This document shows, piece by piece, positions 1,907 through 38,874 of a DNA stretch of 64,000 nucleotides (position 1 is the stretch's first letter; every line of letters begins with the position of its first letter). Made by a program: the position numbers and the translations under genes. The notes under the pieces are model-generated. The model worked only from the letters and a program-made list of their open reading frames with translations. It was not told the origin of the DNA and made no database searches. Origin of the DNA: Vermamoeba vermiformis (lineage: Eukaryota); assembly GCA_045837725.1 (NCBI GenBank), contig JBEWZL010000243.1, forward strand, positions 248,001 to 312,000, in the 5' to 3' direction.

Positions 1907-4900
1907 TTACATGGATTCATTGGCAAGCTTCTCTTGACCAGCTGCGCCTCCTTGCTGCCAATACTGTCGTCCGAGTTCGGTACATCCAAATCGTTTGAGG
2001 TGATAGCCGTATTCGACGTAAATCATCTCTTTAAGTTGCGCGAATGGCACCGTTCGTTCAGGATTGCTATTAGAAGATGTAGTGCTCGGTGCTGGTGCAG
2101 TGCTGGGCTCAATCTGCGTGGTGTCGTGGAGCGAGATCTGCGCCACCGAGTGCTGCAGTGCCGCGACTGATGCAGCACCTTCGCTCTCCTCACTGCGCGC
2201 AACAGTACTCTCAGCGAGCAGCTTGTCGAGGCCAGTCTCCTCGCAGGCCCGTACCAGCAGTGCCGCCAAGTCGTGCAGCTCAGCCTTGTGCAGCACTTGC
2301 AGCGCGTGCGTGAACATGCCCAGCGAGAGGTAGAGTTCGAGTGCGAGTTGATGTTGCTGCACCGTGAACAGGTAGTGCGCCCATCGCACGAGTACTTCGC
2401 GACACTGCGGGGCATGCGAGGGGTAGTGCAGCTTGACGAGCCAGGCAGCGTCAGTCCAGCGATCGTAGCTCTGCAAGTACCGCGCGGCATCGCGCACTCC
2501 CTTCGAGGCCTGCAGCTGCGGCGAGGGCACGGGCACGAGGGGATCTGCGGGCATGAGTGAGAGCAGCTGCACGCCCTCATCGATCATGCCCTCGGCGATG
2601 AGTTGACTGCTGACGAGCTTGACCGTGTTCTTGAGGTGTTCGGCGCTCTGACTGGCCGCGATCAGACACGACTTGAGCAGGTTCTGATAGTAGTGCGGGT
2701 GCTGCGGATTGGTCTCGAGCAGCAGTTCGATCGCTTTGTCTTTCTCGCCCAGCAGCAGCAAGTGATCGCCCATCTTCTTCGTCATCTCGTACGGTGCACT
2801 CACATTGCGCTTTTTGGTGTGCAAGTGTGCTAAAAATAGATGCGTGCGCTTCAGATCTTCGTTGTCGCGCAGCAGATCGTAGCACTCGGGCAGTGACCAG
2901 TGCGGATGTTGCATGGCTGGACCCTCTGCATCGTCGCGCGATCGATCCAGTGTGCTGTAATACTCCTTATTTAGCAACACCTTCTCCATGAAGTACAGCA
3001 CCAGGGTCCAAAAGCGAATTTCATCGAGATTTCCAAAGTACTTGGCCACGAGCAGTGCCCGCGCTGCAGTGTCGCTGATGAGTGGCTGACTGGGTGCGTG
3101 CAGTGCATCGAGTGCGAGGACGAGTTCAGCATCGACCAGGGCGCGCAGTTCCGTGCTGAGATGTGTCGCGCCGTGCAGCAGTGCGGTCTTGAGCTGCATG
3201 GCCTGATCGGGACTGAGCAACAGCGGCGAGGGACGGGTGGGCAGCGGCTGATTGACACGTGCGATCAGTGGACTGTGCGCACGAGCACGTGACAGCTGAT
3301 CACGTGACGAGGCCGCGAGTCTGTCACGCGTGCCGTGCCAAGTGAGTGCGCTGTTGGTGGTGGTCATGTTCTTGTCCATCACGCGCATGCAGCCGTCACT
3401 CGTCGCTGCGGTCAGAGGGGTGAGTCAGAGGTCTGAGTACGCGTGTTGATCACGTGATCACTTACCAATCACGAGCTGATGTTCAGAGAGCCAGTCCACA
3501 TCCACAGCGCGGAGATTTCGCTGTCTGAGTGCGGTGCTGAGCGAGACACGCGTGTTGCGATCAATGTCCCACACACCGAACTCGCCGTCGTTGAACAGCA
3601 CCACGATCTGATGCTGCGTGCTCGGCGAGAACTTGATGCGACGAATCACGCCCTTGTTGGTCTGGTACGTGCTCGACTTGCCCGGTGTGTCCAAGTTGTG
3701 CACGTGAATGGTGCCGAGTGTATCTCCCGTGACGAGATAGCGCTCCTTCATCGCGAGGGCGGAGGAGACATTGCTGGGCCCAGTCTCGACAGGGAGCGGT
3801 GCTGCTGTCACCACACTGCTGTCCACTTTGAATGACTTGAGCGAGCCGTCAGGGGATGCAAACACGAACTGTTCGAGCACGTGACTGTCGAATGCGGTCA
3901 CTGGTGGCGTGCTGTACGCGGTCAGCGAGTGCGCAGCGAGCAAGTCCAGCGAGGCACTCTTGTCCGCTGGTGAGGGTGTGGCCGTGCTGGGTGCCCATTC
4001 AATAGCAGTGATCTGCACGTAGGGCTTGAGCGTGCGGAGCAGCGTGTAGGTCTTGAGCGACCAGATCTGGAACGGCTGATCTTTGAGCAGCACAATCAGA
4101 TAGCTCTTCGCAGGACTGGGTCTGATGCCGCGGATGTACGTGTTCTCGGGATCTGTCTTCTTGCGTATGTCCGTGTGCTGGCCCGTGCGAATGTCACTCA
4201 TCACAATGCGATTCACGTACAGGCCCTTGTCCACGCAGGTCGAAGAGAACGAGATCACGTGATGTTCGTCCAACCACCGCACACCGCGCACACTCACATT
4301 GTTCGCGAGGGCATCGCTGGCCCCCGCAGCAGTCACCGTGCTGGGCGTGAACAGTTGAAAAGTGTGGCGCGGCACAAAGTCACTGGGCCCGTAGATGAGC
4401 AGCAGTCCATTGTCGAGTCCTGCAGCCAGCATGCCAGTGTTGAGGTGCACGCCAATGGTGTTGATGCGACAGTGGTGCGAGGGCTGTTGCGCGACACTGA
4501 GCTGTGTGAGTGCCGTCATGCCGCTGTCCAGCACACTCACCACGCGCAGTTCACACTTGCCGCGCTTGACACTCACACTCTGCGCGCTGAACTGCGGTGC
4601 GTAGAGGTCAAATGGCGCACTCAACACACTGGTGCGCATCGCTCCTTCGTCCTCATCGCGCCACTCCACGGCCATGCTGTCAAACACGCGTGTCAGTGGT
4701 GACATGTTGACAGGTGTCAATCGAATACTTACACCGAGCCATCGCTAGAGGTGACGTACAAGTAGCGATCAGAGAGAGGACTGAGTGCCATGGAGTAGAT
4801 GAGACTGCTCTTCTTCTTGGCAGACTTGTTGTGGCGCGTCAGATCCAAGCACGCGCACAGTTCAAACTGGTAGTGGTCGCTGCTCTCTCTGCGCTTCCAC

Positions 4901-6054
4901 GCCGTGATGACATTCTCCTCGTGCAGACAGAACAGCAGATTGGGACTCTGCTGCGAGAGACAGAGCTGTTTGAGCGGTGGCTTGGTCCTGTCGAGCAGCA
5001 TCACCGCGACACTCTGATTCAGCGAGAGATCGAACACCAAGATGCGCTTCTCCAGCAAGAAGAACACAATGTGGCGGTGGTGCGGTGAGAAGCACATCTG
5101 CACGTAGTCGCTCTTCAGTGTCGCATCGCTGCCCTGCGAGTTGATCTTGTACTTGAGCTCCACGAGTCGCGGTGCAGCCTCGAGCTTGAAGTCCTTCACC
5201 ACAAATATGCCCCCGTGCGGTGTTGCGAGACATGCCTGCTGCGTGTCAAAGGGATTCACGTGCAGCGAGATGATCGGATCTGGCAGTTCAATGCGCCACA
5301 CCACCGTGCCAGTGAGCGTGTTGTACATGACGAGGTGATTCGGATAGTGCACAGCGGCCAGCAAGTGGCGTGCGTGTCGTGCGCGCATCCACTGCACATC
5401 GAGCACCGCGCCGAGTTTGAGCTCCGTGCCGCTGAATCGTGTCAGCTGCGTATGTGGCTGCGCGACATTCCACACCACAATGTTGCCCTGCAGATCACCT
5501 GACGCGAGCTGCAGCAGTGAGCTGCGATCTGATTCGAGATTGAGCACGTGATGCGACCAGGCCAGGGCGGTGATCAGTGTCACGTGCTCGTCCAGGGTCG
5601 TGATCACGCGCACTGGTGGCACTGCTGTCGTCACCACCACCACCGAGTGCAGGGCGAGTGCTGTCAGTCCTGCGGAAGACACTTCCATAATAGGCAATGG
5701 TTGACAGCTCTGCGCACCGACCTGCGAGGCGAGCGAGGACAGATTTGACTGCGAGGCGGTGTTGCTACTGCCACCAAGCAGTGCAGCGAGTGGTCCAGCA
5801 GCAGCGAGTGGGGAGGTACTGCCGCTAGGTGAGTTCATGTACGCTTGTGGACTCTCGAGCGGATTCAGCGGTGAGTTGAGACCTGATGCGTACAATGCGA
5901 GCAAGTCTCGCTGCGCTGGGGACTGAGCAGCGGTAGATAGCAACGCAGATACGATCGAGGAGGGACCTGGATATGGTTGTGGTCCTAATATCACTCGGTG
6001 AGGGTTGGGCTGGGCCAGAGGATGATTTAGATGTGGATCTGTGTTGTTGGCCAT
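1907..6054 (-). CDS. WDR11: WD repeat-containing protein 11 (3 exons)
   Basis: ORFs 4729-6054, 3458-4720 and 1907-3388 join through short GT-AG introns. Motifs LASGDLQGNIVVWNV, LLAAVHYPNHLVMYNT, FGNLDEIRFW, KAIELLLET, GVQLLSL, AARYLQSYDRWTDAAWL match WDR11. Confidence 0.88.
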
Positions 6055-6431: not shown

Positions 6432-8947
6432 ATGGGCAATGAGATCGGGTACGCAAAAAAATCTACAAAAAACTTCAGATAATTTAAATTAAATCCTTAT
6501 GCAAGCCCATTATTCAAATGTATCATTAATATGGTTTTTGATGGACAGCAAATCACTGAAAAATGTTGTAATGTCAAACCCGGATGTGGGCTTTGCCGAG
6601 CTACCTCAGAGCACAGAACCAGAGCCAGTACGCAAGAGCAGTGGTGCCGCGCATGACAACAAGGTAATTGATGGCAGCACTCAACTCGCAGCTCACTAGT
6701 CAGCAGACAGCAGATCCGACTGAAGTGCCCTGGGACGAAGTGCTCAAAAGTATACGCGCCGCGGACTACGAGCAGGCAGTGCACTTGCTGTCGCGCGACA
6801 CCGAGTTGACAGCACAGCTCCGCAAGCACGAGATTGCACAGCTCTCCACGCGCGAGAGACTGCTGCACGTGATTCGCTTCAAATTCTTCGACAGCGTCAA
6901 GCAGCAACAGCGCGAACTCTCTGCCAAGTACGTAGCGCATCATGTCGTATAGATATATATGTATATGATATATATGTACATGTGTATATGTATGTGTAGC
7001 TCAGGGACACTACTCACCTCCGCGCAGATTTGCAGTCCTGTTCGACAACTGTGGTGGCAACAAGCGCGAGGCCCTGGAATATTTGCAGCATCACGTGGAG
7101 CAGATGTTGGCAGCACGCCCGACACCGAATCACGTGACCACGACTGTTTCACTGAACGATCTCGAGCACGTGCTCAAGGGCTACACGACACTGCTGCGCG
7201 TGCTGGAAGACTACGCGTACATTGAACAGATCTTTGGCCTGCCGACCTGGCTCGTGTTCGTGTCACGTGGTCTGCAAGTGAACGAGCACGTGATTCAGGG
7301 CACACTCAAGCACTGGCAGCTTGAACATCGGGGCCTGTTGGCAGATATTGAGAGTGCGCGACGTGGTGATGGCACTGTGCCAGCTGAGCGCATGGAGCAC
7401 GTGACCCGCACGCTGGATCAACTGGCACTGCTGGCAAACAGATCTGAGCACTACAAAGCAGCTGTCAAGCTGTTCTACGAGGTATGCGAAGACTTTGCAC
7501 TTATTCGTTGACACGTGTCACATGTCACTGACAGTGTTTGACAGCGTGCAGCGACACGACTCGGACTGCAGGGCTACAGCTTCATCAGCAAGAGTTCAGC
7601 AGTTGCGTCACGTGACTCCAAACAGCTCGTGATTGAAGATCACGTTCATGAATCACTCGCGCTATTCAGTGCGGTCTCAGAATTGTTGCAAACATTCTAC
7701 CTGCCCCTCGAACAATTCTTCTTGCAGCACAGCATCACCACGGTAAGTACCGCGCTGCTCACTCCTCGAATCACGTGCTGATCACATTGCTATATTTGGC
7801 AATCAGATGTTTGCAGACAGTGATCGCGAGCTGCGTGCCGAGGACACGACGAATGACACGCGCGGCAGTGTGCTGGACGTGGTGTTTGTGATGCTCGAAC
7901 AGGCCATGACACGCGTGCTGATCACTGCCAATCACGCGATCATTGCCACCATGATTGAACACCTCGCGCATCAGACGATAGTGCATCATCTGGTGACGCG
8001 TGAGCTGGCAGGACGTGTGCGTGCCCTGGTGACTGATCTGCAAACACAGCTCTCAGGCGTGCTCAAGAAGATTGCCACCACCAGTGCGGCACCCGCCAGT
8101 GAGCTCACCCTCGCCTGGCTCCTCGTAAGTACTGTCCCTCGTACACCGATTAGTCTGTCTCACTTGGCTGCAGTACTGGCTGAACGAGCTGAGTGCCGTG
8201 CCGAGTGATCTCGATCGATTGCGCGATCAGCTGCTCGTGATTGCCAAACAGAGTAGTCGCGTGCCACTCGACCAGGGCCAGCTGTCACTCGAACAACTCG
8301 TCACGGAGCACATGACACGTGCTAAGACGAGCTGTCAACAACTCATCTCCACTGTGACACGTGATCTCGTGGCCGCGGTGATTTATCCGCAGTGCTGTCG
8401 CAGTCACGTGACACGCTTTGAACGACTGGACTACGACATTGACGCGAGCAAGTACAAGGACTACGAGCTGAATGACCCGTGGATCAAAGCACTCATCGAT
8501 GATCTGCGCGCACTGCTCGTGGTGTCGTGGCAGCACAAGCACGTGATTCACCGTGACGCGTGGTGGCACCTGATGGTGGCAGTGCTGGAGCTGCTGCTGA
8601 GTGACATGGAGCGCGTCATCACCACCAAGCTCGTCTTCTCGCCACTCGGAGCCATACAGCTCGACAACGACGTGCGGCACCTGTTCGAGTTCAGTGCAGC
8701 ACTGGTGGCTCCTGATCACTCGGTGCGCAATCAGTTCACGCGCATGTTGCAGATCTGCTCGCTGCTCAGCTTGGAGCGCGTGACTGAAGTGTACGAGTAC
8801 TGGACCCCTGCACACACGCACACCCCTGCGCGCGAGGGCGAGGTGGCAGACACGATCAAGTGGTCGCTCACGGCTGATCAGGTCAAAGCGGTGCTCAAAC
8901 GACGCCGCGACTTCAAAGCAGATCTGGTCGACAGACTCAAGCTCTGA
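6432..8947 (+). CDS. COG4: COG4-like CATCHR protein, N-terminally truncated, multi-exon
   Basis: IRAADYEQAVHLL near the N-terminus, VLDVVFVMLEQAMTR, and C-terminal FSPLGAIQLDNDVR...RNQFTRMLQICSLLSLERVTEVYEYW...WSLTADQVKAVLKRRRDF match COG4. First exon 6432-6448 inferred from splice sites. Confidence 0.8.
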
Positions 8948-9997: not shown

Positions 9998-11586
9998 ATG
10001 AGCACATCAGCACTACGACTCACAGCCATCATTGTCTTAGGTGTAGCAGTGCGTGTCTTGCTGCACTTGGCTGGCTTTCAAGAGATATTTGCCACCTCGT
10101 ACGAGATCAGCACGCCCGTCAGCAGTCACAAGCGCAGTACGTACTGGTCGTGATTGCCCTGTTGGCTGACGTCAGATCTGCTTTGGAAAATTATTTTAAA
10201 TTATTAGCTTGTCAGAGCTATCAAGGATATTACATCGTGACGTCGTATTTCACTGCATACATATTTCTAGATTTCTAATGCCGCATCTTAGTTCTGGAAG
10301 GTTTGTACTTGCAATCAGTTGGCCAATCACCCTATCAAGGCTCAGTCTACAATCAACCCCCCTTAATATTATCTCTCATCGGTTATCTACTGCAATTCAA
10401 GCAATACTACGCCGTACAACTGTTCTACATCTGCTTGGATGTGCTCAACGCGGTGTTGCTGTACAAGATCTTGCAGCTGCACCGTCCACAACAAGTGCGC
10501 GAGTTGGAGGAAGAGAAAGTGCTGCGCGAGATGAGTGCCACTGAGAGCACTGCGCTGCAACAACAAGCCAGCAAGTACACCACGCTGCATCTGCTTCCCA
10601 CCTTGCCCGAGCTGAGTGCCGCGCTGTACCTGCTCAATCCCTACACGTGGATGTCTACCGTCGCACTCTCACCCACCCTGCTCTTCAACACGGCGGTGAT
10701 TGTGCTGCTCTACGCCGCACTCGCACACCGCGCACTGCTGGCACTCTGCGCCCTGGCCCTCGCGACCTATCTCGTGCCACATGCCATCGTGTTGGTGGCA
10801 CCTGTCATCGTGCTGCTGCAGCTGCGGGTAAGCGACCTTTGTGTGCTCGTGACACGTGTCATACTCACCTCTCACGTGACAGCTGTCAACACGTGTCATG
10901 TTCGTGGTGTCAACATTGCTCGCGGTGACAGCACTGCTCTACGTGACTGACACGTGGAGTGTGGAGCGCGTGCTGCAGAGCTACGGCACGACACTGCTGG
11001 CGAGTGACTTGCAGCCGAACATTGGCCTGTTCTGGTACTACTTCACGGAGATATTCACGCACTTCCGCGCCTTCTTCTTGTTCGTGTTCCAGTACCACCT
11101 GTTCATCTACTTCATTCCCCTCACGTGGCGACTCAGGTACGTAGCTGCTGTGGTACTGAGGACCAGGGCTCATTGCATTGATTGCGCAGAGATCACCCCG
11201 AGCTGGTCTATTGGGCCCTCGTTGCAGCCATGGCGATATTCAAAGCCTATCCCAGTGTCGCTGACATCTCGCTGCACTTGTCCATGCTGCCACTCTTCGT
11301 GCACAAATTGCGTGGTGCGTAACTCACTGATTCATGATTGCTCGATTGATATTAACTGGCCACAGAATTGCATTATGGCTTTGTCATCGGCTGTGGATTT
11401 GTTTACATCACGGTACTCGCACCAATCATCTGGCGCATGTGGATATTCACTGGAACAGGCAATGCCAACTTCTATTACGGACTTAACCTTGCGCTTGCTG
11501 TATTGCAGATCTTGTTAGTGACTGACTCGCTATCTGCCGTTCTAAAGCGTGATTTCTTACTCCGCTATGTACAGAAACAAAAATAA
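9998..11586 (+). CDS. PIGU: GPI transamidase subunit PIG-U / Gab1
   Basis: EISTPVSSHKRILEGLYL, SPYQGSVYNQPPL, YLLNPYT, DLQPNIGLFWYYFTEIFTHFRAFF, FKAYPSVAD, WIFTGTGNANFYYG. Multiple TM segments; 4 introns. Confidence 0.93.
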
Positions 11587-11864: not shown

Positions 11865-12600
11865 TGCAAAGAACTTCTTTTTGTGTTGGGTGACCATAAT
11901 GCACTGAGTAACCATTGACAGGACGCGCCATTAGATACAGCTAATTTGAGATCTAGATTTTAACGTCAACACATCAAATCTGATTTATTTCTTGATAGGA
12001 TGCTGAGCCATTAGTGAAGAAGCCTCTGAAAGGAGTTCAAATCTAAATCTGCCAACTGAAGATTCTACAAGAACTTTTTTTGCAAAACCAAACAGTTTGT
12101 TGTGAAATAACCACCAACATAGTGCGTGTGGTCTCTTCTCAAGGCAGAACTCAAATTCAAGCTCATGACATCGCCCATGGTGCTGTTTCTCTTCACAAAG
12201 CGATTAGGTGCAGAGGTTTTTGGCCATGTCACCCATAAGTGTGGAGGTTGCAAAGCTTGTGGAAGATGGCCAGTCCAGCTTGGCTCGGCTATCCGGAACG
12301 CTTTGGCTAGCTGGAGGCAGGTAGTGGAAACTTGGGTTGGCAACCATGCAGAAGTCCCAGGTTCAAATCCCAGCCAGCATACCTGATTTTTATTTATTTG
12401 TATGGCTTGGTACATGCTCAAGGTGGACTGAAACTGTCAACCACACTGACGTCATGGGTTCAAATCCCATGGGTAGCATTAATTATTATCCACATAGTTG
12501 CATGATCTTTGTTGCTTTTTCAGCTAGTAGGTTCATAATTGAAGGAACAATGGTTACTTAGTGCATTATGGTTACCCAACACAAAAAGAAGTTCTTTGCA
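11865..12600. mobile_element. Non-autonomous TIR (MITE-like) element, 736 bp, with 53-bp terminal inverted repeats
   Basis: 11865-11917 and the reverse complement of 12548-12600 match at 51/53 nt (TGCAAAGAACTTCTTTTTGTGTTGGGT...CCATTG). No coding capacity and no clear target-site duplication. Confidence 0.7.
12306..12478 (+). pseudogene. Two tandem degenerate tRNA-like units (T-arm / Pol III B-box) inside the MITE
   Basis: CCCAGGTTCAAATCCCAGCCAGCA (~12356-12379) and CATGGGTTCAAATCCCATGGGTAGCA (~12453-12478, perfect 6-bp stem). D and anticodon arms do not fold canonically. Confidence 0.5.
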
Positions 12601-12672
12601 CACCCTCCATATACTTATCCAGAAGTTTTTACTTGGTGGACGTCCTGTCTGGCAAAAATTGGATGTCTGCCA

Positions 12673-13967
12673 CGGACCGTCCGCCGACCATACATCATAG
12701 AGTATGAAGATTTTAACAAGATTTCTATATGCCATGTATATGATTAAGCATATCCCTTCATTATAACAAGGTTTGCCACCATACTGGACAAAGTTACAAC
12801 ATAAAAAAGTATAGATGATTCAAAATTTTTTTCATAGCTAGGTGACAATGCATTGTAGCCAAAGTTCAGGTTTGCATAAAATACATATAGATGTGTTGTA
12901 CCAAACATGTGCTGGTGGGTGGGTTTATACTTAACGCTTAAAATTTACAAATTGCTGCCACTACAATATCTTTGATGATTACTTATATTTTCATGTTAGA
13001 TAGTGATACATCTAGGTGTTCCCAAAGTTTCAATGGTATTGCAGCCAATAGAACAAAGTTCTAGTACATAAGTTCTTTGAAGAACATTGCCATTTTCAGC
13101 CTCTGGCGTTTAGTCCAAAGCCTCCTGATGCCAACAGTAGGCTTCTTGGGTCCACTGATGCTAATGGCCGAGTTTGGTATAAGTTGGTCAATTACTAACA
13201 TCAGCAGATGCAGCGACCACGGACGGACGAAAAATTTTGGCGGACAGGACGTCTGCCCTTGTCCAGGACATGAGACTTGTCTGGGCCAGATAACTTAGCT
13301 GGGCTGGACATCTCACCCTGGCTGGCTATGTCATCCATGCTGGATCCTCCTCACGAACTAAGGGTGGCAAAGTTTCGTATACAGCCTCCGCCAATGACAT
13401 TGTATGCTCCATGGACTGCATGTCTGCCAACCACATCATAGTACAAAGTTTACAATAAGATTTCTATATGCCATGTATGTGGTTAAGCATATCCCTTCAG
13501 TATAAAAAGGTTTGCCACCACTGACGTTCAACTGATCTCGCAGATTTTGATTGAAAATTTTTGGACAGTTAGGTGACAATGAATTGTAGCCAAAGTTCAG
13601 TGGTGCATAAAATACGTATCGTTGTGCTGTGCAAAGTATGTGCTGATGGATGGGTTCATATTAATGCGAAAATTTACAAATTGCTGTCACTACAATATCT
13701 ATGACGATTACCCATATTTTCTTGTTACATAGTGATAGTTCTAGGTATTTCCAAAGCTTAAATGGTATTGCAGTGCGTAGAACAAAGTTCTAGTACTTAA
13801 GTTCTTTGCAGAACAATGACATTTTCACCCTCCAGCGCTTAGCCCAAAGCCTCCTGATGCCAATAGTAGCCCTTCTTGGGTCCTCTGGTACTAATGGCAA
13901 AGTTTGGTGTAAGTTGGTCAATTACTAACATCAGCGGACGCAGTGACCCCGGACAAAAAACTTTTGG
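12673..13967. repeat. Diverged direct repeat, two copies of ~560 bp (~12673-13240 and ~13412-13967), probably a second non-autonomous element family
   Basis: Colinear shared blocks include AGATTTCTATATGCCATGTAT, GTAGCCAAAGTTCAG, AAAATTTACAAATTGCTG, AGAACAAAGTTCTAGTAC and TAAGTTGGTCAATTACTAACATCAGC. Short imperfect inverted ends: GACGTCCTGTC at ~12639 and GACAGGACGTC at ~13243. Confidence 0.85.
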
Positions 13968-16737: not shown

Positions 16738-18045
16738 TCACGGATAATAGGGCGGATCTGCACTGAACTCTGTCGCTGCGCCACTGCTGTTGTAAGTAGT
16801 GCCCGTGCCAGGTGCCAGCATGTCTTCATAGCCCGTGTAGGACTCGTATGAATAGAGGGGCAGCGGATTGGGGGCAGCGTCGTCACTCGGATTGGGATTG
16901 AAATAAATGTCGAACGGATCTGTCTTGTTAGTATTGCCGTTATTCATCGCGAGCTCATCCTCGAGATTGGTCACGTGACTGGCGCTGAGATCACTCGCAG
17001 TCTGCATCACAATTGCTTTCACTGCGCGCTCTGAGTCTGCACCACTCGGCAGTGTCGTGTACATCTGCTGCATCTTCAGTTTGACACGTGTCAACATGTC
17101 ACTGCGGTGTTTGCACTCGTTCAACTGTCGCTCCAACAGCTGTCTGTGCTCTTCTTGTCGCTGCAGTGCCTCGCGCAACAAGCCCATCAGTCTGTGCTGC
17201 ACTTCCATCGCGCGCTCAGTGCTCGCCGTGCACTCGTCGCACACCTTCATGCTGCTGTCCACGTCACGTGCTGCTGTCTCCAGCTCTTCTCTGGTGCGCA
17301 GTTGTGCCATCACCGCGCCGTTCAGTAATTCCGCACGCACTGTAGCACGTGACTCGGTACTCAGTGCCGCACGACGCAATTGTTCCGCTTGTTGCCACGT
17401 GTCATTCAGCCGTTCCCGCTCAGTGGTGACAGGTGTCACAGCTGTGTCCGTGCTGGTGAGTCGCAGTTTGAGGTCGTCAATCACACTGCTGTCAAATATC
17501 TTGCGCTCACTCCAAATCGACAGCAGGCGTTGAATGGACTGCAAGATCTTGTTGCTCGCTTCGGTGTTGGCGCGGCGTGCGAGGCGTGAGGTGCTTTGAA
17601 AGGCCTCGGGCAGTACACGCACGAACTCTTGCACGAATTCCGCGCCTTTCTTGCGACTGCTTTGAATCACGTGATTTGCCAAATATAGAAACACTAACCT
17701 CCGATCCAATTGTACTGCAAGAAGTTGAATTATAATGTGCTTTTATTCGCTTGATATTTAAAGGCCATAGCAATTATAATACCAAGTGCGCAACAAATCA
17801 CGCGAGCAAATAAATAATTAATTAAAATAATAATTACCTAAATTTTTAAATTCATTTGCCCACACTTCTACGCACTGCTTAGCTCTTTTGCGATGAAACA
17901 TCATCCACATAGACAATCCTAAGCATTAATAATTAATTAATCAGCAGATCAGCACGGTACTGATTAGAATCGCACCTTCAATACTCTGCTGCGTCTCATT
18001 GAGCTTAGTCAACTTGTCTACGAGATCTTTGTTTGAAAAGGCCAT
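16738..18045 (-). CDS. CID-domain RNA polymerase II CTD-binding protein (RPRD1/Rtt103 family)
   Basis: MAFSNKDLVDKLTKLNETQQSIEGLSMWMMFHRKRA...RRLVFLYLANHVIQSSRKKG...RLLSIWSERKIF is a CID domain, followed by a coiled coil. Confidence 0.85.
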
Positions 18046-18413: not shown

Positions 18414-21400
18414 TCAGAGTCCAGCGATCACGTGCTCGAGCAGTTCAGCGGTGAGTGCTGATTGGTCCGTTGTAACGCGTTCAATGCCATCGAACAGTGC
18501 CATCAACTTGCCCACAATTGGTGCCGCGAGTGTGGCGTAGTTGCCGTTGGTGCTATTAATAGACCAGGTCAGCAGACCCGTCGCGTCCCACACGATGAAC
18601 AGTGCGCCAGAGCGGTGCACGAGTCGGTCGCGCGAGGTCTGATAGGCCACAAAGTCGAGTCGTGCCAGTGCGTGCAGGACCAGCGCGGAGAATTCGCCGT
18701 TCTGTGGTGGCACAGTGACACGTCGTCGGTGCGTGGCGGTGAGTGGTGCCGCGCTCTTGCTGACCGTGGAACAGAACTCCGAGGGCACTTGGTGGCACAG
18801 CAGATTGTTGCTCTTGGCGCGTCGTGTGAGCTGCGTGATCCAATCCGCGACCAGACTGCCCGTGCTGACCAGCCACTGCAGCTGCAGCTCGTACACGCGC
18901 TCGGCATCGAACACCGTGTCGTACACCAAGTGCATCCACTCGTAGCGATCTGTCTTCGCGCGGTCCAGTTCAATGCGCACGGTGCGCTTCTGCACTGGCG
19001 GATCACGTGACACCGGTGAGGTGGCTGGCACATTGCCACTCGTGTAATCGGAGATGATTGTCGGCTGCTGACGTGTCAAAATTGGAATTTCATCCTGGTC
19101 ACGTGATTGGCGCTTGTCGTTGGACTTGGCACCCACCAATTTCTTTAAATGGAAGTTAGTGCGTGATTACCATACTAGGCAAGTACATACCGCAATCAGA
19201 TCGTAGTTCAGACTGTACACAAAAGGACCGTCTTGAAACGTGTCAGAGCCAGTGATGGGCACGAAGATCGATCGATCGACCAGGGCTTGACAGTACTGAA
19301 TGGCCTCGAGTCGAGTCATGCGTTCACTGAACTGCACGGGGGCGGTGACAGTGGGAGACTTGTCGTCAGGTGTCATACTCTGACCTCCGCTGCCTGTCAC
19401 TTGATAGGTGCGTGACACGAGCCAGTCAACGGCCTCGCTCGCTGTCGGAGTACAGTGAGTGACACGTGTCATTCGGAGACTAGTCGCGCACTACGTACCC
19501 ACAAAGCCCATGGTCTTATTGCCATTTATGGTGCGCTCTTTCACTGCCAGTCCCTGCGCATTGGTGCTGCTCATCACTGCCAACATCTCAGCCTCCTGCA
19601 AATGACACGTGTCAGCGGTCGAGTGGCACAAGCGAGCACGTGACTTACATTGTTGATGTCCAGGGGCAGCGGCTCTTTATTCGCCCTGTCGCTGAGAGGA
19701 CTCTGTGCCGCACTGCCAGTGCCAGGTGCCACCAAGGGCTCGCGCACCGTGACGAGCAAGTGCTTGACATCGTCGTCGAGCATCTTGTTGTTCACCGCCA
19801 CGCGCGCAGCAATCAGCTCTTTGATCTTCACGAAGCCGTTGATGGCCTCGCGCGCAGACTTGCAGCTGTCCGCAGGCACGAGAATGAGATTGATGGACCA
19901 GTACTTGATGGACTCGATCAGTGCGCTGTAGTAGCCGCACACCAGCTGATCGGCGTAGTTCCAGTTGTAGGCAGCGCTGCTCTGGTGATAAATGTCGAGA
20001 TCTTTCTGCACGTAGCGCTGTTCAAACTCGTGCCAGAGACAGTACTTGTAGGGGAACACTTTGCTGGTCTGTTGGTGCTGCTTCTGCTGGTAGCGCTTGA
20101 CTTCAATGTTGTGCGAGCCCGTCGGATCGTAGGTCAGTTTGTGGAAGTACTGGCCGCGACTCAGATAGCAGGTGACAATCGTCTTGCTGCTCGATGTCGT
20201 CACATTCATGCCTGAAGTCCACGGTGCCAGGCCCGCACTGGTGCTCGCTGCTGCACCCTCTGCAGGGGGGAGGGCGAGCTGATAGCCACGCGAGAGACGC
20301 TGCGAGATGAGCTCTTTGAGCAGTTCATCGGTGTTGTTCTGATACACATTGTCGTCGGGCAGCAGTGCCAAGGTGTGCGGGTACTCGACAAACTGTTTGT
20401 TGCTGTGCGGTGAGTTAAGGAGTTATATGAACAAGTGAGTGCTAAATATAGCTACACAATAGCGTGCAAAGGATACAGTTCTGCAGTGCTCGGGAAGTAG
20501 TCGCTGGTGAGGGGCAGCGAGGCAGGCTCGGTGAGGGACTTCCAGTGCGGTCCATTCGGATCTGTTTCAATGAACTCATTGGCAGCGGAGGTGCGTGTGA
20601 ACAGATGTGCCCAGCGACGACGTGTGCTCGAGGGCTTGGGCGGCACATATTCGTAGTTGAACGGATTCATCGGTCTGCGCGCTGCACTGGTCGCGAGGGG
20701 TGGCAGCACGAGTCCCGCATTCGTGTTGAGACTCTTCTTGCTGAGCGAGTTCGAACTCGGTCCCACCGATGCAGGCCCTGGTGTGTTGACGGACATCTCG
20801 CTCGTCACGCTGTTCGCCACACTGTTCACCTCGCTGCTCGTCACATTCACGGCGGGTGTGCTCGGCATGGCACGACGGCGCGAGGGCTGTGCAATGGGTT
20901 GACTGGCACGCGCGGCCTTGCTGACACCAGCACTCGGTGTGCGCGGGGGCCAATCACTGCCACCCTGCGAAGGTGTGCGTCGTCTGGCACGCAACAACTG
21001 CGCGCTGTGTCGTGACTGCAAGCCCTGTGCTGAAGAGGTGACACCCACATTGACGAATGTCTGCAGCTTGTTGTCCCACTTCTCGCTGCTGTTCGAGGCT
21101 GCAGTGGGCGTGAATGAGCCGAGCAGTGTCATGTCGTTGGGGCCTGACACAAACACCGTGTCGTCGTACTCCTCGAACTGCGACAAGCGACGCAAGTCAA
21201 ACGGATTGTCGTGTCGCATGCTCTTGGGCAGTGTCCAGTGCGTGGCCTCGCTGTGCTGATCTGCGACTGGAGAGATGTTAGTCGTGTAGCGCATATTCAC
21301 GTGTGACGTACTCGTGCGGTACTGCAGTTCAGGCATGCGCGCACAGGCCACAAACGAGTGCGCAGTGCTGTGCGGGGCCGTGTGATGCGCGTCACGGTGT

Positions 21401-29242: not shown

Positions 29243-32200
29243 TTACACCTTTGTTCGCTCGCGCAAGAATGAGATGACATCGTCCAAGTCCTCTTCATCT
29301 TCCTCTTCATCGCCTGAATCGTCCCTCGCTACTTTGCTCGGTGTGACGGGGATGGGTGGGGGTTGTGGCGGGGGTGTTGGTTTGACGGTGGGTGGTGACT
29401 TGGACAGCTTGTCACTGGATTTGACACTCGACACCGAGCTGAACAACTGATCGCGTGACAGCGAGGCTTGTGAAGAGGTGAGTGAGCTGAGTCGCGTGGA
29501 CGAAGTGTCATCCGAGTGCGTGCTCTCATCCTCGTCTTGGAAAAAGATGTGGGACAGTAGTTCTGAGGCTGAGGGACGCAATTTGACGTCGCGTTGAAAG
29601 CACAGCGTCAAGAAGTCTTTGGCTTTGTCGGACAAATTGGCTGGCATGGCCGGTATTTGACCTGACGAGCCGATTTTGAACAGTGCGGTGACCGGTGCCA
29701 GTTCTGCGAAGGGCGGTCGACCAGTGGCCATCTCAATCACCACTGCACCCACACTCCAAATATCTGCTTTGCGACCATAGCTGCTGGCACTCACTCCTTC
29801 ATTGCCGTAACCTTGTTGAATCACTTCAGGGGCCATCCAATAGGGGGAGCCCAGCACTGTCTTGCAGCCCTCAGAGAAAGACACAATGTCTGCGAGCTTC
29901 TTGCTGGCACCAAAGTCTGCCAGCTTGACAGTGCCGTTGCTGTCCACGAGTATATTGCCGCCCTTGATGTCTGTGCGCGCGTGAGTACAATTGCATGGTA
30001 TCAATCACGTGCTTACCTCTGTGCGCGATGCCATTGTCGTGCAAGTACTTGAGACCTTGCAAGATCTGTTTGGTGAATGAGCGAATGATCTTTTCATTGA
30101 ACTGTTTGAACTTAGAGAGCAGTGTAGCAATAGAGCCGCCAGACTGATATTCCAAGAAAATATTCAGCTTGTCTTCCACGCGCTCTGAGCCCAAGTACCG
30201 CACAATATTCTCGTGATCGAGATCTTGCATCAATTCAATCTCTTTCTGCAGCGCTGTCACTTTGGCTGAAGCATCGGCGTTCTCGCGCGGAATAGTGACT
30301 TGTTTGACGGCAATCAACTCGCCCGTGTCCGTGTGCATGCCCAAGAACACTTTGCCGAAGCCACCCTCGCCCAACAGCTCGCCTTTCTGCCAGCGAATCA
30401 CACGCTTGGCCTTGCTCTTGATGGCATTGGGTGAAGTGACTTCAGCGGAGCGACGATTGCTGCCGTGACTGCTCGTCATCTCCGCTGAACGACGCGTGTT
30501 CATGTTGAGTGCTGACGAGGTAGATGTGATGCTGTTGGACGAGGAGAGCGAGGTGTCGTTGTTGTTGAACGAGCCGAGCGAGGGATAGGGCGACTGATCG
30601 GAGGACAAGTAGAGCTTGAGCGAGGTCTGCTGCGTGGTCTCGAGGGTGTGCGTGATGGCCTCGTCGAGATCTGATTGGTTGCGCACTGTGATGTAATCGC
30701 CCTCTTCATCTGTCGATCAAGGGCTGGTCAGAGTCTGACTCATAGATGACACGTGTCAAACACCTACCTTCGTATTGAATGCGCAGTGTCGTCGTGTTGT
30801 ACTCGTGTGACAGGCGCGTGGACAGCTCGGTGTAGTTGACATCTGTCGTCACTGACAGCACACGAATCTCGTCGTTGTAGTGACACTTGAGACGAATCTG
30901 TCACGTGATTGGTCAGTCACCTGTCAACTATGTCACGTGCTCGCATTACCTTTTTTGTATTTTTCTTGTGTGACTTGCCGTTGCTTGACGAGGCAGTGTT
31001 TGACACGCTGGTCTGTTTCTGTTCGGACACCTGTTTGACATCGATCTTCTCCTCTGTTTGACACGTGATCAGAACCCGTCACGTGATCGCTTTCACTGAA
31101 TACTTACCGCTGACCAGTGTGAAGATGTCTTTGAAACAAAAATCGTATGCATTCTTGCCAAACACGACGTACTATAAATAGAACCGCGGTCAGTGGTGGT
31201 GAATTACCAAATAAGGCAGTGCAGATGCACGTACAGGTTTGTCTTGCACCAACACCGCGCTGTGAAAATATCGTGCTGTGAGTGCGTGCATCGCTGTGGT
31301 GCCTGTCACGTGACTGTCCGTGCTGATCTTGGTCCAGCGCGCAGTGATTGGTGCATCGGAGTTATTGCCTTCTTTGGTCAGTGTCACACGCCACGTGTCA
31401 CCAAAGTGCGCCACTTTGTCGCGTCCTCCGAACAGCCAGCCCACGCCGTGTTTGGTGAGCAGCAGCGAGTGCCCCCAGCGCGGGGTCGGTCTGTCAGGGC
31501 CCTGCACCGTGATCGCGCGACACACCTCCGTGGCGAGATCCAGGGCCCACAAGTCGTTGAAGGGCTCGTCTGAGCCACTCTTGCCGCCAAACAAGACGAG
31601 CTGTCCCGCCCACTGCGCGCAGTCGTGGTGATAGCGCTCGAGCGAGGGATTGGGCACCGTGCCACTGCCGTTCAGTGAACTAGCGCTGAACACGTGACTC
31701 GAGTCCAGGCGGTACTTGACGCGCTCCCAGTGATTGGCGTCAAAGTTGTACTTGTGCAGCGTGTCGCAGGTGAAGCCGTGCTGATCGTAGCCGCCGAACA
31801 CGAACAGACACGTGTCATGCACCACGGCTCGGTGACCAAAGCGCGCGAGTGGACCTTTGTTGTGCGGTGTGACGAGTTGCCAGCGCCGCTTGCTGAACTG
31901 ATAGCGGTACATGTCTGCGTGATAGCCATTGCTCTTGCCACCGTGGATCCACATCTCATTGCGATAGGTCACAGCGACGTGTAAATTGCGTGGACAAGGC
32001 ACCTCTTTGTTCTCTCTGTTGCCAGCATGTTCTTGTTGCCACTCCTTAGTCTCTGTAGTCACCAATTGAGAGTAAATGGACGGTGTTGGATCAAATTAAT
32101 TATTTAGGCCATTCAATTTCAGTATTAAAGGCTCATTTGAACGCCAAAAAATCATAATAAAATTGAAACAATATAATCAATATTAATACAGGCTATAACT

Positions 32201-32410
32201 GGCTTGTGAGACCAAATTTCTAGATTTAACCACAGACTTACGTGTGTTGAATGAATACACAGCATTTGAAAAAATTCCATTGCGATCAGAACCGCCGAAT
32301 ACATATATAATATTATTGTAGACTACTGACGAATGCCCGCTCAGGCCCGGAGCGAAAGGACATTCGGGCAGTTCGATCCACGACTCTTTTGTTTGACTGT
32401 TGTTGGCCAT
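29243..32410 (-). CDS. Kelch-repeat + PB1 + STE11/MAP3K kinase
   Basis: Kelch repeats (GHSSVVYNNIIYVFGG, RFGHRAVVHDTCLFVFGG, RWGHSL). PB1 domain (IRLKCHYNDEIR...IQYEDEEGDYITVRNQSDL). Kinase domain (WQKGELLGEGGFGKV, HRDIKGGNILV, DFGASK, GSPYWMAPEV). Joined in frame by GT-AG introns. Confidence 0.88.
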
Positions 32411-35430: not shown

Positions 35431-36924
35431 ATGGCAGATAAGATGAGAGCTAAGAAAGAGGCTGAGGCCGATGCGAAGATGAAAGAAGGCGACAAATAGT
35501 ATGAGTTATCGTAACAAACGCATTGCAGATCCGATTAATTAATTATTATTAATATTAGTGCATCTAGCGGATTTTTTAAGAAAGCAGATTGGAATAGTGC
35601 CGCTGGTGCTTATGAAAGTGCAGGTAAAATAATTTCCGTAATTGAAAAATTATTTGAAAATGTTTCTAATGCACTGCACTTCTGATTATTACACGCCAAA
35701 TAATATTATTATAATTACTAAATTACGTGCAGGTAATTCCTACAAAAATGCCAAGTCCAATGAGAAGGCCATCCAAGCCTTCACCAAAGCAGCACAGGCC
35801 TACATGAAGGACAAGCTGCCCAACAGTGCTGCCAAGTAGGCTATATTTAGCACTCATGAGCACGTGATTGACAGGCTATTTTAGGAACTACGAAGCAGCT
35901 GCGAGCTGTGCGACGGGCGAGGCAGCAGTGGAGCTGTTGGTGAGGTAAGTCTGACCTGCTGCTGCGTCACGTGACTGACTCGTTGATTGAACAGCTCGGC
36001 TAATTCACTGAAAGAAGGTGTAAGTGACACGTGTCAAATGGGAGCTCTGACCAATCACGTGCTGACTTGATTTGCAGGGACTCGGTGAGCGCGCAGGACA
36101 AGTGCTGGCCAAGGCTGCAAAGTAAGTGACAGGTGTCAAACAGTGACTCGCACCGACCAGTGACTGACAGGCAGTGGCAGGTTGTTGGAGGCCGATGCTC
36201 CCACACGCGCGAATGAGCTGTACAAAGAGGCCGTGGAGCTGTACGAGATTGAGAACAAGGAGCACATGGCCTCGGAGTTGTTCCGCAATGTCACTTCCTT
36301 CTACATTCGCGCGCAGATGTGAGTGTGACAGGTGTCAAGTGGTGACAGGCGACACTGACCTCGTTGTGACAGGTGGAATGAGCTGTTGGAGCTGTGGACG
36401 CGTGTCATGAAACAGCTGCAAAAAGATCAGCTGTTCGTCGAGCTGTACCGCGTCTATCTGAGCGTCATCATCGTGCACTTGTTCCGCAATGATTACGTCG
36501 CCGCTGATCGTGCTTACTCGCAGTTTGCTGGGTACGCATTGCCTAATTAGGAAATGTCGTAACTAACTCTCGCACAGCACGGAGGGATTTGTCGTGTCTG
36601 ATGAGGCAGTGCTCGCCAACACCTTGTTGAATGCCTATCAACGTATGTACAGCCTAATGTAGTAATTGCCTTATATAGTAATATTGATCGGTGCCTCTAG
36701 TCAACAGCCCTGAAGACTTGAAAAAAGCGCAGTCGAACATTCTCATCACATTCTTGGACCACGAGGTACGTCCTCAATACTAATATATAGCGATGCACAC
36801 ACACAATATATCTCTATATTCACCTCTCCTATAAATATTCCCTGAGCTCATCACTCGCATTTAGATCGCAAAGCTGGCCAAGAAATTGACGATTGCTGAA
36901 AGTGACAAGGACAGCCTGTTGTAA
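35431..36924 (+). CDS. NAPG: Gamma-SNAP (gamma-soluble NSF attachment protein), many small exons
   Basis: FFKKADWNSAAGAYESAGNSYKNAK, AAKNYEAAA, LAKAAKLLE, ELYKEAVELYE, LSVIIVHLFRNDYVAAD, FLDHEIAKLAKKL; spliced by hand. Confidence 0.88.
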
Positions 36925-37708: not shown

Positions 37709-38874
37709 ATGGAGACTCAAAAGCCGTTGTCATTGCCCGGTTCAGCCCCGTACGAGAACGTGTTGATCAGCCCAGTGGTGGTGTTTAATATTCTCGATCA
37801 CTTTGTGCGCCGCGGTGAAAATCAAGCGCGCGTGATTGGCACGCTGTTGGGCACGATCAACGAAGAGGATGGCACTGTGGTTATTTCAAACTCTTATCCT
37901 GTCCCTCACACTGAAACCGAGCAGGTAATAATTATTATACGATATTATTAGTATTATAATTAATTTTCAGTTAATTATTAAGCTGATATTTTTTTCAGAA
38001 TCCGATCTCCCATTATATTTTAATTATTTTATCGTCTAATAATTCGAATATGCATTAATACTCTTATTTTCTAAAAAGGTCGTTGTTAATATGGAATTCC
38101 ATCGTAATATGATGGCTTTATACAAAAAAATCGCCCCAGATGAGGTGATCGTTGGCTGGTAAGTCGTCTTATTTCTGATGATCGCACTGCTTATTCTCGA
38201 TACTACCATGCACTACGACATATGCACGATGCTGACCAATCACCAGGTACGCAACAGGCTCGCGCTTGTACGACACGAGTCAGCTGATCCACAACTTTTA
38301 CTGGCGCGAGATGAATGCCCCGCCAGTGCACTTGTTAGTCACGGTGCCAGAGGGCGAGTCTACTGCCAAGCCCACGATGGGCAAGCGCGCAGCAGTGACC
38401 GATCAACTGACCGTGCTGCCGCTGTACAGTCAACAGCTGGCCCTGAGTGAGCGCGGCACACTGCAAGAACAATTTCACCCGCTCAATTACCAGCTCTTGA
38501 CGGGCCCTGCTGACCGCGTGGCCTTCGACGCACTGACCAGCGAACTGACTGCCGAGACGGTCGATGCCAATGCACCGCTCAAGCTCAGCGACCTCGCCAC
38601 ACTCGAACACGCAGTCACGCGCGTGCTGCAGTACATTGAACAGGTGCACGACTACTTGTCGCGCGTGGTGGACGGCAAGGAACAGACGCCGAGTGCGGAG
38701 GTGGGTCGATTGATCAGCGACACTCTCGCGCTGTTGCCGCACTCCGAGCCCAATTTTGAAAAGATATTCACGCACGGACTGCAAGATGTGCTCATGCTCG
38801 TCTACTTGGCCAACTTGACGCGCACGCACTTGTTGCTCGCGGAGAAATTGCGCGATCAGACCAGCACCCTCTAA
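37709..38874 (+). CDS. EIF3F: Translation initiation factor eIF3 subunit F (MPN domain)
   Basis: PVVVFNILDHFVRR...RVIGTLLG, NSYPVPHTE, EVIVGWYATG, LIHNFY, LQDVLMLVYLANLTRTHLLLAEKL. Confidence 0.92.

Follow-up and report, generated by a model that had tools for sequence, protein, structure and literature searches.

The window analysed here is a 64-kb stretch of Vermamoeba vermiformis DNA, positions 248,001 to 312,000 of contig JBEWZL010000243.1, numbered from its first letter. The element in question is the palindromic hexamer CACGTG, of which the window holds 87 copies. The excess of this word, its independence of reading frame, its symmetry, its presence in every compartment of the DNA and its recurrence in independent contigs are established by the analysis set out below.

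CACGTG in the genes of the window

The window is gene-dense eukaryotic DNA, with short GT..AG introns that are confirmed by transcript contigs of two runs. Pfam names on 51 of its open reading frames (ORFs) include MCM4, WDR11, COG4, PIG-U, a CID-domain protein, DEPDC5/Iml1, a Kelch/PB1/kinase protein, a proteasome AAA ATPase, cofilin, a villin with headpiece and a myosin-I with TH1 and SH3 domains, among others. Three of the genes that carry CACGTG, and two introns of the one in which it is densest, are:

1911..5838, minus strand: WDR11-like gene (Pfam WDR11 propellers and TPR), with nine exonic CACGTG and one intronic (3451, in intron 3406-3465)
6671..8947, plus strand: COG4-like gene (Pfam COG4_C, E=1.2e-24), with the densest CACGTG in the window (6.2 per kb)
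7482..7544, plus strand: COG4 intron 2, carrying TGACACGTGTCA (7509-7520)
7743..7806, plus strand: COG4 intron 3, with CACGTG at 7772
16738..18045, minus strand: CID-domain gene (Pfam), with six exonic CACGTG (4.6 per kb)

Our model of the COG4-like gene has exons at 6671-6927, 7028-7481, 7545-7742, 7807-8124 and 8174-8947, which splice to a 667-amino acid product with no internal stop, 84.5% identical to a transcript-derived protein, P0002. Its 14 sites (6866..8545) fall out as eight His-Val dipeptides, four x-Arg dipeptides (SR, SR, TR and TR) and two intronic copies, with none in frame 2. A first-pass annotation had listed these 14 coordinates together with 10 in the WDR11-like gene, and each of them proves to be CACGTG; the HV, TR and SR dipeptides it named are likewise correct on the spliced model. 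It had also set the 14 sites against about 0.4 expected, which holds as a uniform-composition figure but inflates the excess to some 30-fold. From its own composition, the segment 6866-8545 would be expected to contain 0.47, 1.8, 3.6 or 9.0 copies with models of order 0, 1, 2 and 3, respectively, and the fair excess, given the order-2 expectation of 3.6 for 14, is 4- to 8-fold.

The COG4-like protein has one close database relative (85-87% identity) and otherwise nothing above 38%, which indicates a sparsely sampled lineage; no relative turned up when metagenomes were scanned with the COG4_C exon. Since the 85%-identical sequences P0001 and P0002 are available as protein only, conservation of the motif was judged at the peptide level. 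In P0002, 11 of the 12 exonic sites are still compatible with the word and His-Val is kept in seven of eight, while at the four x-Arg sites the Arg and the next G-initial residue are kept and x varies among Thr (ACA), Ser (TCA) and Ala (GCA). This compatibility is only suggestive of conservation of the word itself. Among 150 distant homologues, the residues at the four sites of COG4_C, in the last exon, show 4-15% identity and their columns rank at percentile 8-41 among the 208 columns scored, and are thus variable. The earlier expectation that the HV and TR residues of this exon would lie in poorly conserved columns of distant orthologues is therefore borne out.

Gene models came from our own exon-chaining gene finder, which recovered exactly 7 of the 14 transcript-confirmed introns. 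Three genes were corrected by hand from transcript joints and 4.3 kb remain as 'model gaps', so that exon and intron counts are approximate. Raw RNA reads from runs X21 and X23 were thin (165 and 262 reads), 95-99% alike and contained almost no splice joints. A backward joint, 17100->10872, was considered as a rearrangement and rejected, as it reflects 20-nt matches of other transcripts to a palindrome-bearing stretch; the same applies to the loose ends at 10891 and 17079. Near-identical transcript contigs of the window occur in runs under several different organism labels, four of which were aligned with it, and parts of the window are also found in soil, aquifer, water, root and biofilm metagenomes. 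This wide occurrence suggests a common free-living organism that accompanies other cultures.

Excess over composition and codon choice

In 100 dinucleotide-preserving shuffles of the window CACGTG occurred 24.58 +/- 4.96 times (largest 37), and local expectations over 2-kb tiles sum to 27-31, to be compared with the 87 copies observed. The excess is 3-4x for the hexamer and 9-11x for TCACGTGA, which is the commonest 8-mer of the window (19 sites vs about 2). The commonest 10- and 12-mers all include CACGTG, and TGACACGTGTCA is present in 8 copies against about 0.01 expected. CACGTG is also the top-ranked hexamer in non-ORF DNA (25 sites vs 5.3-6.9). Its nine one-mismatch classes all stay at or below 1.6-1.9x, and the deamination neighbour CATGTG/CACATG stands at 0.81 of its order-2 expectation, no lower than the general CATG deficit predicts. 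Distances between sites are evenly spread modulo 3 (40/36/40), as expected of a frame-independent word, and no period was seen in 177 neighbour gaps or in pairs up to 400 bp apart, which is a small sample.

Two simpler origins were rejected. A general taste for palindromes or alternating purine-pyrimidine words does not fit the low values of CATATG (0.41), GTATAC (0.37) and CGGCCG (0.16), and an origin by CpG decay does not fit a CpG observed/expected ratio of 1.02. Scarce tetramers in the window are CCGG (0.44), CATG (0.53) and CTAG (0.56), and common ones GTAC (1.63) and GATC (1.40). A second iterated palindrome, CAGATCTG, has 16 window copies against about 1.5 expected, often as GCAGATCTGC (examples at 4062, 8750, 9854, 34545, 35358, 37014 and 62162); eight copies are exonic and four lie in spacers adjoining predicted gene starts.

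By compartment, with order-1 and order-2 expectations in brackets, the sites are distributed as follows, the remaining one spanning an exon-intron boundary:

Exons: 38.1 kb, 52 sites, 1.36 per kb (19.6-21.8 expected)
Short introns: 4.1 kb, 16 sites, 3.86 per kb (2-3 expected)
Model gaps: 4.3 kb, 10 sites, 2.3 per kb (0.9-1.7 expected)
Intergenic DNA: 17.4 kb, 8 sites, 0.46 per kb (3.2-3.4 expected)

Set against composition, the enrichment amounts to about 2.5x in exons, the same in intergenic DNA, and 5-10x in introns. Per one-mismatch word, exons have 0.19 exact copies, introns 0.53 and intergenic DNA 0.16, where 0.05-0.08 would be expected; the intergenic ratio is raised about 3-fold, like that of exons. 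The first-pass annotation had spoken of saturated gene bodies, a description that does not hold as such, because intergenic DNA is also about 2.4x over its own composition and introns, not exons, are richest. Its statement that the word occurs in all three frames and in introns is right for the window, where exonic sites divide 25/16/11 over the frames; in the COG4-like gene frame 2 is empty. It had further noted an absence of sites at 11.6-14.5 kb and a lower density at 46-64 kb. The first is correct (0 observed) but uninformative, with 0.33-0.40 expected from composition; the second is correct for density (13 sites), yet the fold there, 2.7x, is near that of 1-46 kb (74 sites vs 20-24, or 3.1-3.7x). 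Both the empty island and the sparser region are thus accounted for by composition. The 11.6-14.5 kb stretch itself has no transcript contigs between 12.0 and 14.0 kb and contains a tandem duplication of about 730 bp (12670-13224 and 13409-13954, 78-88% alike), three inverted-repeat pairs and, at 12338-12469, two tRNA-like T-arm remnants (GGTTCAAATCCCA). No tRNA gene was predicted by ARAGORN, and the stretch could be the decayed remains of a tRNA-derived repeat.

Codon-aware nulls were applied to 88 self-trained ORFs (40.4 kb), with 500 shuffles per null. These ORFs contain 62 CACGTG (29/22/11 over the three frames), against the following expectations:

Codon order shuffled: 17.8±4.0
Synonymous codons shuffled, protein kept: 30.2±4.2
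Protein, codon usage and dinucleotides kept: 40.7±3.9 (largest 53)

The observed number was attained by none of the 500 shuffles under each of the three nulls. The excess hence survives the codon-usage and dinucleotide null that had been named beforehand as its refutation, and under this strictest null CACGTG ranks first of 4096 hexamers. With the two looser nulls it comes second, after CACTGC, and the shift in rank indicates that the excess is partly composition shared with CA/TG/GC-rich words, with a word-specific part remaining. We also considered all peptides that could carry CACGTG by synonymous choice alone and compared their use of the word with the codon-usage expectation, in the window and in the metagenome loci described below:

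His-Val, frame 0: 25 of 35 in the window (17.2 expected); 35 of 47 in metagenome loci (17.9 expected)
[Thr/Ser/Ala/Pro]-Arg-(G..), frame 1: 17 of 65 in the window (3.3 expected); 28 of 69 in metagenome loci (5.6 expected)
(..C)-Thr-[Cys/Trp], frame 2: 10 of 22 in the window (2.9 expected); 9 of 13 in metagenome loci (1.4 expected)

Over-use in the window is therefore 1.5x, 5x and 3.4x in frames 0, 1 and 2, and 3- to 6-fold overall for frames 1 and 2; of the compatible Thr/Ser/Ala/Pro-Arg sites, 26-41% are spelled with CACGTG. The His-Val dipeptide is itself in excess (46 vs 28 expected in the ORF set), and of its 46 codon pairs 29 are CACGTG and none is CATGTG. For pairs one step from CACGTG, the window has 7 where 15.3 are expected, and the metagenome loci have 9 where 23.5 are expected. 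A directional force thus operates at the nucleotide level, in all frames. The strength that it implies is small, the odds of the word being raised roughly 6-8x where two synonymous choices are needed, an effect similar in size to that of codon-usage selection or biased gene conversion.

These comparisons bear on whether ordinary composition, with preferred codons (CAC, GTG, ACG and CGT) and a CA/TG-rich, CC/GG-poor signature, could yield the word by chance. His is encoded by CAC in 76% of cases and Val by GTG in 55%, synonymous shuffles already give 30 of the 62 ORF sites (41 with dinucleotides kept), an order-4 model yields 70 of the 87 window sites, and the density of sites in a gene tracks its CA/TG excess (rho 0.65). 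Nevertheless, chance of this kind is a very improbable source of the whole pattern, in view of the codon-aware nulls, the rank of the word under the strictest of them, the excess at peptide-compatible sites in frames 1 and 2, the 5-10x enrichment in introns, which have no codons to choose, and the recurrence of the result in independent contigs.

Those contigs were obtained by scanning metagenomes for the 18-mer GTAAGTGACASGTGTCAA, which gave 34 loci, many from three sample groups and overlapping at 99-100% identity. Eighteen 'organism-like' loci were kept by recurring sample group and composition, a choice made after the data had been seen; nine near-duplicates were dropped and seven were set apart as 'other'. 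Two of those kept, L029 and L031, still share 759 bp, which contain 3 sites. After masking of the ascertained 18-mers, the 18 loci (64.2 kb) hold 98 CACGTG against 21-25 expected, again rank 1, with the same flank classes and dinucleotide signature as the window and with AGATCT again among the top words. Their density is 2.5 per kb in exons and 0.6 per kb in intergenic DNA, compared with 0.2-0.5 per kb in the seven 'other' loci. The richest, L012 (5.7 kb), carries 26 sites, compared with 3.65±2.0 in shuffles, and they lie in large ORFs without a Pfam family. The excess is therefore a trait of the organism or its close kin, rather than of the window or of one assembly. Near-identical metagenome contigs differ at 34 positions in 9.2 kb, of which one falls inside a site (0.5 expected), too few to be informative.

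Genes of the window differ in their share of sites. Nine carry 45 of the 52 exonic sites, and their introns have 5.9 sites per kb compared with 1.5 per kb in other genes; exon and intron densities are correlated (rho 0.63), and heterogeneity against gene length is significant (p=0.0002). Fourteen genes (11.5 kb) have no site, among them those for the proteasome ATPase and a kinase as well as the WD40 gene, whose RNA coverage is the deepest. A separate class of site-free genes was rejected on an omnibus composition test (p=0.16 in the window). In nine genes at 1-20 kb of the window, word depth of X5/X6 contigs, a poor measure of expression, drops as site density rises (hand-computed Spearman about -0.8), which gives only a hint that site density is linked with low expression or weak constraint.

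Introns, flank symmetry and longer palindromes

CACGTG lies in 13 of 72 model introns and in two further introns read by hand. Within 69 introns it is the top hexamer (13 vs 1.3), above the branch-site words, and five introns hold two copies, one toward each end. Introns and runs of introns that carry it, beyond those of the COG4-like and WDR11-like genes, include:

10827..10881, plus strand: PIG-U intron (transcript joint 10826->10882), with CACGTG at 10853 (within TGACACGTGTCA) and 10873
19442..19498, minus strand: DEPDC5-like intron (transcript joint 19441->19499), carrying TGACACGTGTCA (19460-19471)
19596..19648, minus strand: DEPDC5-like intron with two copies, GTAAGT-CACGTG at its 5' end and TGACACGTGTCA in the branch-site region
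30710..30767, minus strand: intron of our own gene model, with TGACACGTGTCA ten bases past the 5' splice site
30898..30949, minus strand: hand-read 52-nt GT..AG intron without transcript confirmation, CACGTG at 30934 and 30902
31054..31107, minus strand: hand-read 54-nt GT..AG intron without transcript confirmation, CACGTG at 31080 and 31062
35836..36372, plus strand: run of five short introns, three with CACGTG (4 sites; 36020-36077 has two)

A third site of the PIG-U region, 10890, lies just within the exon that follows intron 10827..10881. Four of the ten model-gap sites fall in the two hand-read introns, two copies each, and in the run 35836..36372 two introns open with GTAAG-TGACAGGTGTCA or GTGAGTG-TGACAGGTGTCA. 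On the minus strand at 29243-32410, a single gene appears to comprise, as its exons, a Kelch-repeat ORF, a PB1 domain and a protein kinase domain, joined via a 104-nt exon between the two hand-read introns, a joint without transcript confirmation. The 72 model introns are mostly 44-65 nt long, with donors GTAAGT or GTACGT (GTACGTAC being an over-used 8-mer there), the acceptor (C/T)AG and the branch words CTGAC, CTCAC or CTAAC 15-25 nt from the acceptor. The 12-mer CTGACCAATCAC occurs five times (approximate positions 30902-30913, 36046-36061, 38230-38243, 43625-43640 and 43955-43970), mostly at the branch-site end of introns and in two of them directly abutting CACGTG; it resembles a CCAAT box yet occupies the place of a branch point.

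The flanks of CACGTG are dyad-symmetric, in the form R-[T/A/G]-CACGTG-[A/T/C]-Y. Position -1 is T, A or G (C in 7%) and position -2 a purine in 78% of sites, and both preferences are mirrored at +1 and +2. The mirror persists when sites are read in transcript orientation, in exons and introns, and half-symmetric forms are balanced (GCACGTGA and TCACGTGC 12:9, ACACGTGA and TCACGTGT 4:4). The sole asymmetry is G at +1 without C at -1, in exons. True intron RNA signals, in contrast, are strand-specific: CTGAC occurs 29 times and CTCAC 19 times, against 3 and 0 on the other strand. This difference argues for recognition of double-stranded DNA by a two-fold symmetric reader rather than for a single-stranded RNA motif.

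An element acting as CACGUG in pre-mRNA, where it would serve splicing or RNA handling through binding or through pairing of copies that bridge, for example, the two intron ends, has to be considered at this point. The word reaches its peak density in introns, transcribed DNA has a higher fold over composition than intergenic DNA, and in two of the five two-copy introns the minimum-energy fold pairs the copies. However, folding of 15 motif-bearing introns (12 with CACGTG and three with variants of the palindrome TGACA-SS-TGTCA, below) gave none that beats its shuffles (z -0.6 to +1.2), and the same was found with five control introns included (z -0.6 to +2.1). Exonic sites do not cluster near splice junctions, with 0.5-0.9 per kb within 50 nt and 1.4-1.8 per kb beyond, and the exact/one-mismatch ratio is raised in intergenic DNA too. 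Together with the symmetric flanks, these results make a function in RNA distinctly unlikely.

Several of the intronic copies sit in a longer palindrome. TGACA-SS-TGTCA, 12 bp long, has 13 window copies, against about 0.03 expected by our arithmetic for the four 12-mers; 8 of them have the centre CG and 10-11 are intronic. It often directly follows GTAAG(T) or lies in the branch region, and it has TGAC in common with the branch-site word CTGAC; three introns of one gene open with GTAAG(T) or GTGAGTG and TGACA(C/G)GTGTCAA. An element of about 45 nt (TTGACAC-S-TGTCA-ACATGTCAC...GTGTTTGACAG) contains this palindrome in three window copies (nhmmer E 1e-11 to 1e-13):

7499-7550, plus strand: copy in the 3' part of COG4 intron 2
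4677..4732, minus strand: copy in the 3' part of a WDR11 intron, with TGACACCTGTCA
17072..17123, plus strand: third copy, with TGACACGTGTCA, antisense in the CID-gene ORF (16738-17693, minus strand; nhmmer E=4e-13)

Such copies raise the question of whether the sites could be remains of a small mobile element, an introner or a miniature inverted-repeat transposable element (MITE), with a core TGACACGTGTCA that was scattered by transposition and made or colonised introns. The intronic bias of the 12-bp palindrome, the three introns that begin alike, the 45-nt copies in two introns and, antisense, in one exon, and the recurrence of the 18-mer GTAAGTGACASGTGTCAA on many contigs of the same metagenomes would all be compatible with transposition. 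On the other hand, the other window matches to the 45-nt element have only the 12-mer in common (nhmmer E>=0.036 each), no target-site duplications, terminal repeats or full-length families were seen, and in none of the 72 spliced junctions is the word rebuilt. A mobile element would moreover cover at most 8 of the 87 sites and could not account for the synonymous bias in three frames, and we regard it as a highly unlikely origin of the pattern.

A candidate reader and its relation to known systems

Our favoured hypothesis, to which we give a probability of about 0.4, is that CACGTG with its symmetric flanks is recognised in duplex DNA by a dimeric protein of two-fold symmetry, with a specificity resembling that of E-box/G-box binders of the bHLH-ZIP or bZIP type. 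A weak and pervasive directional force would maintain the word at high density genome-wide, either by selection for occupancy or by protection or repair linked with binding; both the reader and this means of maintenance are inferred. Such a force could select synonymous codons that spell the word and fix His-Val and (Thr/Ser/Ala)-Arg at weakly constrained residues, and the peak of density would fall in the interiors of introns of about 50 nt, the least constrained transcribed DNA. This kind of reader is favoured because the specificity extends over ten bp, because the flanks appear to match the RTCACGTGAY preference of bHLH-ZIP factors, and because a few sites lie upstream of start codons: about 5-6 of the 8 intergenic sites are some 50-210 bp upstream of predicted starts, themselves model guesses, in divergent spacers. 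The Pfam scan of 51 ORFs found no bHLH or bZIP gene in the window.

Several observations weigh against this hypothesis. Part of the raw excess is composition, as the dinucleotide signature of the window (CA/TG 1.28, GC 1.27, CC/GG 0.70, TA 0.69, CpG 1.02) by itself raises CACGTG; to this belong the order-4 fit given above and the fact that CA/TG/GC-rich words such as CACTGC match its score under nulls without dinucleotides. Heterogeneity among genes, measured against their own composition, is not significant in the window (p=0.16), with p=0.006 in the metagenome loci. Both motif-bearing COG4 introns are read through in P0001, where the word is not encodable at the aligned place, so that individual sites turn over, which fits drift under a weak force and not strongly selected sites. 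Gene models hold 79 of the 87 sites (in exons, introns, model gaps and at the one boundary), and we are aware of no transcription factor with such a distribution. Fold-enrichment in introns is about 2- to 3-fold above that in intergenic DNA, which a uniform DNA-level force does not explain and which hints at a link with transcription or RNA. Finally, the reader is a putative one, proposed from the symmetry of the sequence.

A neutral drive without binding accounts for the data nearly as well as a binding protein. In this case a sequence-specific methyltransferase, very-short-patch-type mismatch repair that corrects heteroduplexes toward CACGTG, or both, would act much as has been envisaged for HIP1, the iterated palindrome of cyanobacteria, which PMC4390886 links with orphan DNA methyltransferases. 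An excess of similar fold in every compartment, strongest in the least constrained DNA of intron interiors, the depletion of synonymous one-step neighbours among His-Val pairs, with CATGTG in none of 46, and the turnover of sites between relatives would all follow from such a drive. However, one-mismatch words are not depleted overall (275 vs 260 expected in exons, 30 vs 25 in introns), CATGTG/CACATG is no lower than the CATG deficit predicts, CpG is undepleted, the base preference reaches -2 and +2, past a 6-bp recognition site, and the intergenic fold is below the intronic. We therefore consider a drive of this kind possible, if rather unlikely.

If a dimeric protein or a repair drive does maintain the word, a broader idea follows, one that we put forward as speculative and think doubtful: CACGTG may serve a eukaryote as a 'self' or licensing word and would then be the first counterpart, in a nucleus, of HIP1, Chi or the DNA uptake sequences. 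In one version, an abundant dimeric factor would read the word along transcription units and keep weakly expressed genes open or marked as self, which would explain why sites fill long, poorly conserved, apparently weakly expressed genes and their introns, why 14 genes, including those with the deepest transcript contigs, are free of them, and how proteins came to be reshaped. In the other, a bacterial-type sequence-specific repair drive would operate in a eukaryotic nucleus. Either way, the lineage would become a tractable model for the spread of a short DNA word against coding constraint.

Cyanobacterial coding sequences are known to be invaded by iterated palindromes, for which no explanation has emerged in three decades. 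The present nuclear case, in which a palindrome is the top word in exons, introns and spacers, means that the phenomenon is not confined to bacteria, and an intron-bearing system allows coding constraint to be separated from DNA-level forces. In practical terms, the word has to be modelled if gene finding, codon-usage analysis and motif-based promoter prediction in this lineage are not to go astray, and any bHLH or bZIP factor would meet a large reservoir of potential E-boxes in the gene bodies. A full-text literature search, outside which most subscription journals lie, found no description of such a CACGTG feature in protists or amoebae, and for the 12-mer TGACA-SS-TGTCA and its sub-words only incidental primer or plant-promoter matches.

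Among known systems, the E-box/G-box CACGTG is bound by bHLH-ZIP factors (USF, TFE/MITF, Cbf1 and Pho4) and by plant bZIP factors, and binders of TCACGTGA prefer T and avoid C at -1, mirrored at +1. The palindromic core, the dyad-symmetric flank preference and the few sites upstream of predicted starts are alike in the window, but there is no concentration in promoters, with 8 of 87 sites intergenic and gene-body densities of up to 6 per kb. Palindromic TALE-homeodomain sites exist in MEIS and PKNOX versions. The TGIF1 form, TGACAGCTGTCA, as given in PMC6158717, has the same half-sites and spacing as TGACA-SS-TGTCA, a resemblance only, whereas the window 12-mer has the centre CG in 8 of 13 copies, overlaps CACGTG and lies in introns of about 50 nt. 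Introners and MITE-derived introns resemble our observations in placing a recurrent intron sequence across unrelated genes, as the 45-nt element does in three places; they differ in having full-length intron families, or terminal repeats with target duplications, and most CACGTG here is exonic.

Very-short-patch repair raises CCWGG in E. coli, where the methylation-site word gains and its deamination neighbour loses; here no specific loss of CATGTG/CACATG is seen. DNA uptake sequences of Neisseria and Haemophilus are also frame-independent, over-used words inside genes, and the first-pass annotation had drawn that parallel. They are, however, non-palindromic and serve natural transformation in bacteria, whereas CACGTG is palindromic, shows no strand bias and belongs to an intron-bearing eukaryote in which nothing points to uptake, and the analogy is therefore poor. 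The closest described phenomenon is HIP1 (GCGATCGC), which, according to PMC4390886 and PMC5861425, is likewise a palindrome, the top over-used word, present in genes in any frame and able to shape codons and residues. It differs in that our word occupies a eukaryotic nuclear genome with spliceosomal introns and has a 6-bp core with graded flanks, not a fixed 8-mer. The excess is far smaller than the 15- to 300-fold stated for HIP1 in PMC5861425, and we find no periodic spacing, in contrast to the quasi-periodic HIP1 distribution described in PMC13756078. CACGTG works in the manner of HIP1, as a frame-independent word that reshapes the codons it passes through, and would be at most a putative member of the HIP1 type.

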